DNA from: Chiloscyllium plagiosum
Taxonomy: Eukaryota
DNA: 64,000 nt
NCBI RefSeq assembly: GCF_004010195.1
Contig: NC_057760.1
Location: forward strand, 4,559,477 to 4,623,476
Direction: 5' to 3'
Every line of letters begins with the position of its first letter. The first letter of the stretch is position 1. Made by a program: the position numbers and the translations under genes. Below, piece by piece: positions 1-55,058 of this stretch. The notes below the pieces were generated by a model. It was not told the origin of the DNA. It worked only from the letters and a program-made list of their open reading frames with translations, and searched no databases.

Positions 1-365
1 TGGGGTGGGGGCGGAGAGGTTGGGAAGAAGATTGCAGGTTAGGAAGGCGGTGCTGAATTTGAATTCAGCACCGCCTTCCTAACCTGCAATCTTCTTCCCG
101 ACCTCTCCGCCCCCACCCCAGTCTGACCTATCACCCTCACCCTGACCTCTTTCCACCTATCACATTTTTGACGCCCCTCCCCCAAGTCCCTCCTCCCTAT
201 CTTTTATCTTAGCCTGCTGGACCAACTTTCCTCATTCCTGAAGAAGGGCTAATGCCCGAAACGTCGATTCTCCTGTTCCCTAGATGCTGCCTGACCTGCT
301 GCGCTTTTCCAGCAACACATTTCCATCTCTGATCTCCAGCATCTGCAGAACTCACTTTCTCCTCA
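1..365 (+). mobile_element. Penelope-like element 3' end with fold-back and hammerhead core
   Basis: 1-120 is a near-perfect palindrome centred near 60; CTGAAGA-AGGGC-TAAT-GCCC-GAAACGTC at 238-265; tail shared with the GIY-YIG-coding copy at 20413-21372. Confidence 0.85.
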
Positions 366-1771
366 AACCCCAAGAAGAGCCAAGAAACTGCAGGAGACTG
401 CACAGCGGAGGCAGGGGTTGGGTATGGGGTTAGTGCCTGATCATGACAAAGGATTTGTCTCTGTGGGTAAAGTTTACTCAGAAAAAAGAGAATGACAAGA
501 CGTTATAATTTTGAGAGATGCAGGATCTAACCAGTTTCTAATAGTAAGACATGAACATATTTGCACTCTTTCTGATCTGTTACCTGAGAGAGTGATAATT
601 TGTGGGATAGATGGACAAAAAGTTAGCATTCTCTTATGTAAGATCAGGTTAGAGTGCCAACTCAAGACTGGGGAAGTGACAGTGGGAGTGATTGACACAG
701 ATCAGATCCAGGAATCCAGTTTGTTCTTGGGAATGATTTAGCAGGTGTCAAGGTAGGAGTGATACCCCTTGTTGTGGAGAAGCCCAAGGAAGACCAGGGA
801 ACTGAGGAGTTAAAAGAAAAATACCCTGATATTTTCCCAGACAGCGTCATAACAAGATCCCACTATCATAAATCACAGCACGAAGCAAAAACTAAAGAGA
901 AAAATGAAGGAGTTGAGGTTCCGTTAGCGGATACCCTGTTTGATGTAATGGTACAGGAAAAACCTGAACAGGCAGAGGGTCAGACAGAAGTGATTAGTCC
1001 TGAAAGGCTAAGGGACTTGCAACAGAAAGATGAGACAATCAAAGATATGTATATTGATGCGTAATCCGAAAAAGAGGTAGAGAATATTCCTGAGGATTAT
1101 TAGAATCCTAAAATGGAAATGGAGACCACGGCAGGTTAGTGCAGAGGAGAAATGGGCCAAAATGCACCAGGTTGTGTTGCCGGTAGCATAGACAGGAAGT
1201 GTTACGGTAGCACATGAACTACCTGTAGGAGGTCACCCTAGGGGTATGAAAGATTCAGGCTAAGGTACAAAAACATTTTTATGGGCCTGGAATACACAAG
1301 GATATGGTTAACTTTTGCTGTACGTGTCATACATGCCAAATAGCAGATAAGCCATAGGCAGTAATAAAACCAGCACCTTTGTTTCCAATTCCCGCATTTG
1401 AAGAACCTTTCATGCAGGTTATGATTGATTGTGTAGGTCCCCTCCCGAGAACTAAAAGTGGGAACCAGTACTTGTTCACCATAATGGATGTGTTTCCCAG
1501 ATTTCTGGAGGCAATTCCATTCCAGAGTATTAAGACAAAAAGGGTAGTAAAGGAGTAAGTTGCTTTTTTCACACGGTATGGGCTATCCAGGGAGATTCAG
1601 TCAGACCAAGAGTCACATTTTACTGCTAGGCTGTTTAAGGAGGCTATGGATCGCTTAGGTATACAGCACTTTAAATCCAGTTTGTATCATCCTGAATCCC
1701 AGGGAGCTTTAGAAAGGTGGTATCAGACCCTGAAGACCATGTTGAGAGCGTACTGTCAGGATTACCCGAAT

Positions 1772-1990
1772 TTAAAAATGTGTTGCTGGAAAAGCGCAGC
1801 AGGCCAGGCAGCATCAAAGGAACAGGAGAATCGACGTTTCCGGCATAAGCCCTTCGTTCCTGCAGAAGGATTTGTGCCCGAAACGTCAATTCTCCTGTTC
1901 CTTTGATGCTGCCTGGCCTGCTGCACTTTTCCAGCAACACATTTTTAAGCTCTGATACTCCAGCATCTGCAGTCCTCACTTTCTCCTAGA
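1772..1990. mobile_element. Penelope-derived fold-back insertion
   Basis: Inverted copies of the Penelope tail; duplicated flank ATTACC(C/A)GAAT at 1761 and 1991. Confidence 0.85.
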
Positions 1991-2773
1991 ATTACCAGAA
2001 TGCTTGGGATAAAGGTATCCCATTCGTATTGTGTGTCATTAGAGATGCCCCAAACAAATCTACTCAGTTTACTCTCTTTGAGTTAGTATTTGGACATGAA
2101 GTGAGAGGCCTTTTGAAATTAATTAAAGAGAAATTGATAAGACCAAATTTGGAGGTTTCACACTTGGATTATGTATCGGAGGTGAAGGAGAGTTTAAATC
2201 AGATAGGTGAGTTAGCTAAGGCACAGCATAGAATGAAGCAGGTGGCAGATAAATACTCTGAGATTTGGACGTTTTCCTGTGGGGATGATGTATTAGTATT
2301 GTTACCGGTAATAGGAGGTCCCTTCAAAGCCAGGTTTTGTGGTTCCTATCAAATTAAGAAAAGGTTGAGTGAGATCAACTATCTGCCAGATAGAAAAAAT
2401 CTATATTGGGTATGTCATGTGAATATGTTGAAACCTTATTATAATTAGGAGAATGCTGTGGAGAAACAGGTGTTAGTTACTGTCCTGCAGAGTGAGGAAT
2501 CAAATCTAGATGTTGTGGAATTTGACGTACCTCAAAATATATTAAACAATGACAAAGTCCTTGAGGAGTGGGATAGGTTAGTAAACTATCTGTCTCAGGA
2601 TCAAAGAACATGGTTGAAAGGCTTGTTACGGCAGGACATATGCAGGAATAAGATGGAGAGGACTAATGCTATTGTGCATGAAGTCGATGTCAGGAATACC
2701 GCTCTGATAAAACAACACCCCTACAGTCTTTGTCCTTTCAAAGCCAGACAGGTCCAAAAGGAAGTGAAGACTA

Positions 2774-3155
2774 TGTTGTGGTTCTGTTCGCCGAGCTGGA
2801 AGTTTTTGTTGCAAACGTTTCGTCCCCTGGCTAGGCGACATCATCAGTGCTTGGGAGCCTCCTGCGAAGCGCTTCTTTGATGTTTCCTCCGGTGTTTATA
2901 GTGGTCTGTCCCTGCCGCTTCCGGTTGTCAGTTTCAGCTGTCCGCTGTAGTGGCTGGTATATTGGGTCCAGGTCGATGTGTTTGTTGATGGAGTTTGTGG
3001 ATGAATGCCATGCCTCTAGGAATTCCCTGGCTGTTCTCTGTCTGGCTTGCCCTGCAGTAGTCTGGCTGTCAGTTCCGAGATACTCCTGATGTATGGTAGT
3101 GTGGCTAGTCCTTTTGGTTGCGGTATGTCCTCGTTCTGATACCCAACAGGAGCAA
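2774..3155 (-). mobile_element. Internally deleted Penelope-like (Poseidon-type) element with hammerhead core
   Basis: Minus strand encodes LATLPYIRSISELTAR and REFLEAWHSSTNSINKHIDLDPIYQPL (GIY-YIG C-terminus); hammerhead core at 2811-2850. Confidence 0.8.
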
Positions 3156-52834: not shown

Positions 52835-52936
52835 CAGTGGACAAAGGCAGGTTCTTGACAAGGTCATGGTAAAAGTTGCCATGATAACAGGTCTGAAATC
52901 GAGGATCTTTGGGTACATGTCAAGTGGAGACAATGT
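52835..52936 (-). CDS. ERCC2: ERCC2 exon 15 equivalent
   Basis: 102 nt, CAG|...|[39 protein letters not shown]. Confidence 0.97.
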
Positions 52937-54069
52937 CTGGCAAAAACACAACAAAAAAAAACACAATGTTTTAAGCCAAGAGGAGGTTTCAGGTGGAAAG
53001 CAAAAAGACAAAATGATACTTCCTTGAACAAAAGGAAGAGTGGCTGCCAGTTGAACCTAATGATGCTGAAGAGTTAGGATAGAGCAACTAAACATGATGA
53101 ATGGCAGAGCAGGTTCAAAGGGCCGAATGGCCTGCTCCTGCTCCTATGTTTCTATGTTAAAAGATTGGGATTGGCTTCTGATGGTGTAACTGACATTAGT
53201 AATGCACCAGAATTGGGAGGAGTAAGGAATGTGGTAGGCAGAAACATAAAGGACAGAGATCTGAAAAGGGTTATGAATACTTTAAAGACATCTGAGAAGT
53301 ATTTAGATGTACGTTTGTAATGCCAAGGCATACAGGGCTATAGACCAAGTGCTGAAAAATGGAATTAGAATAGTTAGGTGATTGCTACGGACTGGTGCAG
53401 GCTTGATGGACAGAAGGGCCTTTTTCCATGCTGTAGACCTCTATGACTCTATGAGGACAATCTTTGGAAAACAGTGTATATTATGTACACTGTAATTATA
53501 GAGAGTTGCATATAATGACATCATTGTGTTGATAATGTTCACATTGTCTGTGTTATATTTATGTTTGCTCACATTGAGCTTATATGAGGGAGGTATGAGC
53601 TATCTTGATACAGTTAGATGGAGAGAGAGAGAAAGAGAGAGAGAGAGAGAGAGAAGGCTTAGGTAGAGCAGAAAGACCAAAATTGACCAGTTAAGCTGAG
53701 TGGCCAGTCTCTGTGCTATTAATACTTTGTAATTATGAGCAACATCAATACTCAGAATTATTGATTTTACCCTCCCTTAACTTGGATTAATTAGACCTGT
53801 AAGCAGATATACATCAGGCAGAGAATGATAAAATGATTGGGATGAGAGTGGGAACAGTGATATGGATTAACTGAAGCACATAGCAAGTGTATCACGTAAT
53901 ACTGAAACAAGCTGTTTTAAGTGAAACCAACTGCCACAATCTCGATACACAACATATCCTTAATGATAAGTCTGTACAAAGTAGAAATGTAAACAGGGGA
54001 TTTGGATATCACCAAGCCACAGAAACAAAATCACATTTCAATTACATAAATAAAAATTGTGCAACTTAC

Positions 54070-54139
54070 CCCTGAGGTGATAATCACAGACTGAAATCGC
54101 TCAAACACAGGCTTGATGGCAATGGATGGGTCCATGCAG
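54070..54139 (-). CDS. ERCC2: ERCC2 exon 14 equivalent (start of motif III TSGT)
   Basis: 70 nt, AG/GTAAG; (S)[23 protein letters not shown]. Confidence 0.97.
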
Positions 54140-54849
54140 CTTATGAAAAGATTTCAAAAGCATAATTTTAGGAGTATATTTCAAATAAACACAAATTTTA
54201 TTTGTATAGAATTTCATTAAACCATTCTTATCTGGACTGGTTTTCAATGAAGCCTTAATATACCAAAGAGCTACACTGATGGAACAGCACCTTGTAAAAT
54301 GATCATCTCCTTCAACAAAAGAATCCTCTGACTTACCTTGTTGAAGTTTATCTAGTGTGAGAGATATCTAAAATATTCTTCAAAGTTATGAAATGTGTAT
54401 AATTTTATTCCATAATTTAAAATATTATTTTAAAATCAACATTTGAAATTGAATTTTCTTAATGCGAATATCTTATAAAAGGAAAATTCTGTATGTGAAC
54501 AGCTGTAGGTCACACTGCAGTTACAGACCTCTGACCAATAAATGGCATCATCACAAAATGTTATGGCCTTCCAATACAGTCATACATCACAAAACAGACC
54601 CTTTGGTCCAACTCATTCAGGCCAACCAGATATTCCAAAATGACAATCTCACTTGCCAGCATTTGGCCCATGTCCCTCTAAACTCTTCCTATTCATATAC
54701 ACATCCACTGTAATTGTCCCCTCATCCAGTACTTTCTCTGGCAGCTCATTCCATTAATGCACTTATTGAAGTTCTAACCACAAATAAAAAGATCAGTTCT
54801 ACTACAAAAGCACTGCTCTGAACAATCAGACCAGGCCCTTAATTTTCAA

Positions 54850-55058
54850 GATTAGAGTGGTGCTGGAAAAGCACAGCAGGTCAAGCAGCATCCGAGGAGC
54901 AGGAAAATCAACGTTTCAGGCAAAATCCCTTCCTGATGAAGGGCTTTTGCCTGAAACATTGATCTTCCTGCATCTCGGATGCTGCCTGACCTGCTGTGCT
55001 TTTCCAGCACCACTCTAATCTTGACTCTGATCTCCAGCATCTGCAGTCCTCACTTTCG
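54850..55058. mobile_element. Penelope-derived fold-back in ERCC2 intron 13
   Basis: 13-bp TSD CCTTAATTTTCAA at 54837-54849 and 55059-55071; inverted tail copies. Confidence 0.85.

Follow-up and report, generated by a model that had tools for sequence, protein, structure and literature searches.

Short hammerhead-bearing insertions in a shark genome as probable abortive copies of uncleaved Penelope-type RNA

The question raised by this locus is whether the hammerhead ribozyme motifs found along it work as ribozymes or are carried as cargo by the insertions that contain them. The window is the whole stretch of 64,000 nucleotides (nt) analyzed here, from Chiloscyllium plagiosum (GCF_004010195.1, NC_057760.1, 4,559,477-4,623,476, forward strand). 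Twelve insertions make up 5.8% of its length. Eleven of them are traceable to Penelope-type elements, and the remaining one (family C) is likely also of Penelope type. Judged by their sequence, the motifs are genuine minimal hammerheads, and at least two families of Penelope-like elements (PLEs) have them in their terminal repeat. The short copies are probably abortive, dead-on-arrival insertions that were copied from uncleaved element RNA. The ribozyme in such copies would be cargo. If cleavage has a role, that role would lie with the parent transcript, probably acting as a dimer or assisted by protein.

A preliminary description of the window had placed nine full hammerhead cores, and all nine were found, at 238, 33751, 50171 and 54933 on the plus strand and at 2847, 14159, 20539, 24871 and 50115 on the minus strand. 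The decayed copies that it gave near 1860, 5830 and 8985 were also located. A loose pattern returned 11 matches, which are these nine cores and two unstructured ones, versus 1.29 +/- 1.16 by chance, and 11 matches were attained in 0/100 shuffles. A strict descriptor of the minimal type I hammerhead returned four motifs (238 plus; 20539, 24871 and 50115 minus) versus 0.04 per shuffled window, and with one stem II mismatch allowed it returned five (2847 minus was added) versus 0.05, each from 100 shuffles. The motifs are taken as genuine because of this last comparison. Among the five family A copies described as intact, three (238, 20539 and 50115) pass the strict descriptor. Those at 33751 and 50171 fail: the former has only two stem I pairs and a U at the cleavage position, and the latter has a C-C mismatch in stem II. 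A core scan with one mismatch gave two extra matches (10700 and 31198), which were treated as chance matches at a setting that had no shuffle control. An Rfam scan (E<=5), proposed earlier as a check on the motifs, did not recover them: none of its 36 matches in the window was to a hammerhead family. The microRNA matches were all below gathering scores and fell mostly on the hairpin inserts.

The CUGANGA and GAAA cores, U16.1, H17 and stem II are present in the five motifs of the relaxed strict descriptor. One extra base between A9 and G10.1, together with a G10.1-C11.1 pair, is found in 5/5. In 5/5, stem III lacks a loop and consists of a four-base palindrome, ACGU in families A and B and AGCU in family C. 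The palindromic stem III was described correctly, with 15.2-16.2 being C-G in families A and B and G-C in C, and the U-U mismatch reported in stem I of family A is present. Stem I has 3 base pairs (bp) in B, 3+1 bp in C and 2+1 bp with the U-U in A, where the norm of the class is 4-5 bp. When folded as monomers, the motifs form stem II (P 0.91-1.00), and the pairing probability of stem I is 0.89 (B), 0.19 (C) and 0.03-0.10 (A). The two-armed inserts fold into long hairpins of -61.6 to -212.2 kcal/mol, in which the motif is buried. The paired motifs in the window are all head to head, and no head-to-tail hammerhead pair able to dimerise was found there.

The tails of families A, B and C cannot be aligned and the cores are common to all three, so the core is conserved between families and the tails are not. 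The possibility raised earlier, that cores might be no better kept between families than tails, is not borne out. For family B the core was compared by descriptor, since MAFFT misaligned this family. RNAalifold on eight family A copies recovered stem II only, with two-sided change in 0/4 pairs; covariation was seen between families only. The earlier assignment to the minimal type I hammerheads of PLEs holds, given the cores common to three families and the palindromic stem III.

Two coding remnants connect the motifs with their elements. At 20410-21372 a GIY-YIG frame (PF01541, E 7.7e-5) lies upstream of a family A core and tail, which agrees with the earlier statement that family A is joined to a GIY-YIG element. 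It carries a CX5CxxC linker at residue 81 and matches P0005, a protein with reverse transcriptase (RT) and endonuclease (EN), at E 7e-57. A CX2-5CxxC linker marks Neptune and Nematis (PMC8557442), and the remnant appears to be Neptune-type by this linker rather than by an RT tree. It is frameshifted, most of the stretch between endonuclease and hammerhead is gone, and the RT core is absent from the window. The short arms of subfamily A1 are 85-96% identical to this endonuclease-linked copy. The second remnant, 2774-3155, had also been called a GIY-YIG element. It appears to be a Poseidon-type remnant, but the GIY-YIG motif was lost via an internal deletion of about 94 codons, and no Pfam match was found in this copy. 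Its family B relatives P0024-P0026 and P0031 have RT and then a GIY-YIG endonuclease without a zinc-finger linker (69-93% to P0024 where aligned). Both long remnants are broken, and therefore they cannot themselves be the mobilisers; the window contains no full-length element. In family B, A9, the extra U and G10.1 spell ATG (2841-2774, minus strand), from which 23 codons run without a stop to where the copy ends; an ATG within the core shares the frame of this one at stem II. Among named sequences, the coding remnants are most like predicted proteins from bamboo, whale and zebra sharks. Family C is a single copy with no coding neighbor in the window and no match in viral contigs, and the family A pattern had no match in metagenome contigs. 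The proposal of three Penelope-type families stands for A and B, which are linked to coding sequence, and C is of Penelope type by its architecture alone. As a separate observation, the predicted host-gene isoforms P0004, P0027, P0029 and P0030 contain translated Penelope sequence, which probably reflects annotation artefacts or exonised copies.

The insertions and their hammerheads are as follows, with arm ends counted from the predicted cut site.

1-367, plus strand: 3' end of family A1 (putatively Neptune-type) with about 200 bp of upstream region, hammerhead and tail; the inverted arm (1-59) crosses the window edge.
234-269, plus strand: intact minimal hammerhead A1 with its core from 238 and the predicted cut after 265; copies of the family recurrently have their 5' boundary at 234/235.
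1772-1987, both strands: A1 head-to-head insertion, arms -22 to +61 and -33 to +100, decayed core; 14-bp duplication with 2 mismatches (1758-1771 and 1988-2001); it sits in a long terminal repeat (LTR)-retrotransposon integrase region.
2774-3155, minus strand: 3' remnant of family B (putatively Penelope/Poseidon-type) that comprises the linker and the C-terminus of the endonuclease but not the GIY-YIG core, which is deleted; no duplication found.
2811-2850, minus strand: minimal hammerhead B, core 2847, predicted cut after 2814.
5767-5856, minus strand: family A single-arm copy, -27 to +61, core decayed; 16-bp duplication with 1 mismatch.
8457-9110, both strands: old divergent family A (A3), head to head, approximate boundaries, cores decayed near 8545 (minus) and 8983 (plus); no clear duplication.
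14035-14160, minus strand: A2 single-arm copy, -28 to +97, CpG-decayed core; 14-bp duplication with 2 mismatches.
20410-21372, minus strand: putative Neptune-type remnant with the RT C-terminus, the CX5CxxC linker and the frameshifted GIY-YIG endonuclease; it lacks most of the 3' untranslated region and holds an intact hammerhead (core 20539, predicted cut after 20512) and the tail.
24754-24908, minus strand: family C, intact minimal hammerhead (core 24871, predicted cut after 24843), 89-nt tail, short inverted arm at about 24880-24908; exact 13-bp duplication.
33656-33843, both strands: A1 head-to-head insertion, arms -19 to +64 and -35 to +65, core 33751 with weakened stem I; exact 14-bp duplication.
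40559-40655, plus strand: family A copy cut off inside stem II, -16 to +65, joined to an inverted 11-nt stub from the end of the long tail; 15-bp duplication with 1 mismatch.
50028-50298, both strands: A2 head-to-head insertion, both arms to about -55 to -60, minus-arm core 50115 intact, plus-arm core 50171 with a stem II mismatch; 13-bp duplication with 1 mismatch.
54850-55058, both strands: family A head-to-head insertion, arms about -22 to +60 and -30 to +98, CpG-decayed core 54933; exact 13-bp duplication.

The copies of the preliminary description are all present in this list, but their head-to-head layout had been overlooked in 8/12 insertions (1-367, 1772-1987, 8457-9110, 24754-24908, 33656-33843, 40559-40655 with its stub, 50028-50298 and 54850-55058), and the arms 1776-1855, 33656-33739, 54850-54932, 8457-8719 and 40559-40655 had been omitted. 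The short insertions (n=8) measure 90-271 bp, and 6/8 are two-armed.

The ends of the copies carry the argument on their origin. The short copies had been described as flanked by duplications, and a candidate of 13-16 bp was found at 8/8 of them. In total 11 insertions were tested, the first (1-367) being outside the test as it runs off the window, and no duplication was found at the three longer ones. Six of the eight candidates score >=10, which was attained by 8/150 random controls. The other two score 8, attained by 30/150 controls, and rest on exact boundary position. In family A, seven arms have their 3' end at +60 to +65 and six at +97 to +102, about 37 nt apart. The 5' starts of the 11 long arms in seven short family A insertions are at +1 in none, at -16 to -35 in nine, and at about -55 to -60 in two. 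For the A2 copies at 14160 and 54930 the start is at -28 and -30, respectively, and upstream of -31 subfamily A2 (50028-50298) is unlike A1. Three arms and the 40559 copy end inside the core or stem II. At the outer junctions 5763-5766, 54846-54849, 55059-55061 and 24909-24911, 2-4 bases are common to the duplication and to the continuation of the element in other arms, and this points to priming at short homologies.

The same boundaries recur at other loci. Four sequencing runs were aligned to window positions 62-430 at 85% likeness. In the contigs of DNA run X2, the summed depth rises from 0.9-1.4 million (88-178) through 2.0-2.3 million (179-230) and 5.8 million (231-243) to 10.5-19 million (244-321), then falls to 4.7-7.6 million (322-360), 1.2 million (361-373) and below 10,000 further on. 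One X2 contig crossing into the flank has a depth of 19.8. Summed contig depth is not copy number; as an order of magnitude only, it indicates about 10^5 copies genome-wide. Unrelated letters stand before 234 in 180 X2 contigs (agreement 0.33) and before 235 in run X15, and also behind 318-322 and 361-363. The -31/-30 boundary and the two 3' ends about 37 nt apart are found at other loci. Thirteen RNA reads, with 10 different starts, carry a fold-back joint 234/245, and DNA contigs carry two head-to-tail joints (367 to 234; 364 to 233). Among the 12 contig joints listed, three end 2-3 nt past the predicted cut site (267/268) and restart at -31/-30 (234/235). The 18 loose ends listed, out of 661, include none at 265/266. 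In the runs on 62-430 no place with many read starts or ends was found, and no pile-up of RNA ends was seen at the cut site in one polyA single-cell run, which is a weak test. RNA run X21 gave 2,993 reads in both orientations, 94% of which extend into unlike sequence and are therefore read as passenger transcription. Run X22 contributed no aligned reads and carries no weight as a test. RNA editing was also considered and set aside: A to G and T to C places number 30/82 in X21 versus 14/46 in X2, and no editing is shown.

These boundaries can be joined in one course of events. The GIY-YIG endonuclease would nick both target strands 13-16 bp apart, as the duplications suggest, and reverse transcription would be initiated internally on the RNA, either at about +60-65 or at about +97-102. 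The complementary DNA (cDNA) would then pass through the cut site and the core, as the copy boundaries show, which implies a template that was not cleaved. Its end is often at -31/-30, where stem I begins, which is likely the RNA 5' end or a strong stop. Where both nicked strands prime, the two cDNAs would join head to head; for the inverted junctions, self-priming on an antisense template has been proposed as an alternative origin (PMC3846280). The copies then decay, chiefly at CpG. In the decay test (13 arms, two old A3 arms excluded), 19/78 CpG bases in the motif have changed, 18 of them by transition, and all three core CpGs are kept in 4/13 arms only. Non-CpG core changes number 2/110 versus 20/558 in the tail without subfamily columns (p=0.56), and tail changes with all columns number 57/649. 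The copies decay as if neutral, mainly at CpG, with no sign of selection in a small test.

A further step is offered tentatively, as possible but rather doubtful: the element RNA may begin at the first base of stem I (-31), the short copies would then be complete strong-stop cDNAs, and long copies and pseudo-LTRs would arise by a cDNA jump to the 3' end of another RNA. TCATTC at -31 in A1 is what we take to be an initiator-like context.

Several results weigh against the reading of the short copies as abortive products of uncleaved RNA. The stem I of family A is barely populated in the predicted monomer folds (P 0.03-0.10). The neutrality figures come from 13 arms, the two old ones having been set aside beforehand, with the tail figure taken without subfamily columns. 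A smaller class starting at +1 may exist, as 18 of the 661 loose ends are listed. Part of the depth step at 234 is an inflation that comes from the different upstream sequence of A2. A fixed 5' boundary is unlike random 5' truncation and equally fits an independent short transcript, and family C, a single copy, has no coding partner in the window.

Such a transcript is the basis of one alternative, in which the unit from -31 to +60/+100 is a self-propagating non-autonomous retroposon with its own transcription start, mobilised in trans by Penelope proteins. The recurrent 5' boundary, the core and tail in about 5-10-fold excess of upstream sequence, and the head-to-tail joints noted above are consistent with it, and non-autonomous PLE derivatives have been described (PMC8557442; 10.64898/2026.07.22.740005). 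However, the short arms track the sequence of the long element, both 3' ends and many 5' ends vary, and RNA reads run in both orientations with no common start (the library makes this a weak test). The short copies, two-armed in 6/8 cases and cut inside the core or stem II in three arms and the 40559 copy, would also be poor templates. This retroposon is considered unlikely. The preliminary description had spoken of ribozyme-tail-only insertions mobilised by the long elements. Ribozyme-tail copies with duplications are indeed found, but a separate non-autonomous unit is not required, and aborted products of autonomous RNA fit at least as well.

The boundary could also be nothing special, that is, ordinary truncation aided by the GC-rich stem II, with the step at 234 coming from subfamily divergence upstream. 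A2 is indeed unlike A1 upstream of -31, the arm starts spread over -16 to -35, and contig depth is not copy number. Yet the letters before 234 agree at only 0.33 over the 180 contigs, like unrelated flanks, fold-back and head-to-tail joints repeat this position, and A2 itself has starts at -28 (copy at 14160) and -30 (copy at 54930); truncation of this kind is quite improbable. Non-LTR retrozymes that spread via self-cleaved circular RNAs, or ribozymes used by the host, are a very improbable source. Type I hammerhead retrozymes are reported in one cartilaginous fish (10.64898/2026.07.22.740005), and the contigs hold a few tandem joints. Against such a source, only 4/13 arms keep all three core CpGs, and the hairpin inserts bury the motif. 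The motifs are also minimal and not canonical, the boundaries lie away from the cut site, and none of the 33 tandem-repeat rows in the window is a hammerhead-bearing array.

Other repeats were noted in the window. Very old fragments of tail-like sequence lie at 19791-19834, 39897-39958, 46841-46873 and 62922-62955, with 68-79% likeness to family A (E 3e-4 to 0.5). Inverted pairs without a hammerhead core are found at 33865-34023, 48391-48704, 14596-14783 and 15961-16399, the last being a copy like a short interspersed nuclear element (SINE) that adjoins a shorter opposite copy. The repeat family at 15961-16271, which we take to be a tRNA-derived shark SINE, was set apart from the hammerhead insertions. 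Two decayed related LTR-retrotransposon regions lie at 372-3632 and 26000-30700 (minus strand); the former has weak integrase matches and hosts two Penelope insertions. One 33-bp minisatellite forms four arrays on both strands (12777-13788, 21672-22080, 23686-24199 and 34379-34679).

As ribozymes, these copies add shark examples, mostly dead, to a known class. Their boundaries would extend to a Neptune-type element the use of two internal start sites and of an uncleaved template, which has been seen in vitro for one Poseidon element only, and the stem I boundary could pin down the PLE RNA start and the rebuilding of pseudo-LTRs. If the strong-stop proposal were true, about 10^5 shark strong-stop intermediates would form a fossil record that makes the origin of PLE pseudo-LTRs testable. 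For annotation, it matters that hairpin inserts yield false microRNA matches and enter predicted shark proteins. The ribozyme, the hairpin layout, the tail and the internal initiation are already published. A literature search that covered few subscription journals gave no report of shark PLE hammerheads or of a fixed 5' boundary at stem I, and no shark terms occur in the searched part of the PMC4209133 supplement. Penelope is listed in the whale shark (PMC8455134).

Compared with non-LTR retrozymes (PMC7229834; 10.64898/2026.07.22.740005), the copies are similar in being non-coding, PLE-related, dispersed monomers with a type I hammerhead. They differ in the minimal motif, the head-to-head layout and the absence of tandem hammerhead units, a retrozyme trait, from the window (a few tandem joints occur elsewhere in the genome). 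Cleavage was found in 1/9 dimers in the retrozyme study (10.64898/2026.07.22.740005).

A close experimental system is PAc, the Poseidon element of Anolis carolinensis, with two-site internal initiation in vitro, an unprocessed RNA template and protein-assisted cleavage (PMC11167929). On the reading favored here, the copies would share with PAc the two internal initiation sites that define the tail, the extension of both strands, the unprocessed RNA template and the lack of RNA ends at the cut site; a start codon at stem II is also common to PAc and family B. Family A differs in being Neptune-type and known here from sequence alone, and no preferred 5' boundary is described for PAc in the portion of PMC11167929 covered. 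The Penelope promoter is located in the pseudo-LTR (PMC2377424). Endonuclease-positive PLEs have adjacent inverted copies and a 30-40 bp tail (PMC8557442, PMC3846280, PMC8969392). The window units resemble those of Neptune and Penelope/Poseidon (PMC8557442, PMC3846280) in 5' truncation, the inverted adjacent copy, the optional 30-40 bp tail, the duplication, the CX2-5CxxC linker in Neptune, and a frame starting within the terminal repeat. In contrast, they are only 90-271 bp long, their 5' ends cluster at stem I, and their duplications are 13-16 bp versus 8-10 bp in rotifer examples.

Minimal hammerhead ribozymes are found in Poseidon and Neptune elements of fish, including solo copies and opposite-strand pairs (PMC4209133). 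The motifs here share with them the type I topology, the lack of loop III, the palindromic 15.2-16.2, the extra base between A9 and G10.1, and the G10.1-C11.1 pair. Similarly, several families are present per genome, mostly as solo copies with some opposite-strand pairs. Family A is unlike them in its shorter stem II (4 bp) and its 2+1 bp stem I with a U-U. Five intact motifs per 64 kb are dense compared with whole-genome counts of about 4,000 in coelacanth and 9,000 in Xenopus, the comparison being between one selected window and whole genomes under another descriptor. The hammerhead copies are further members of the already known class of PLE minimal hammerheads.

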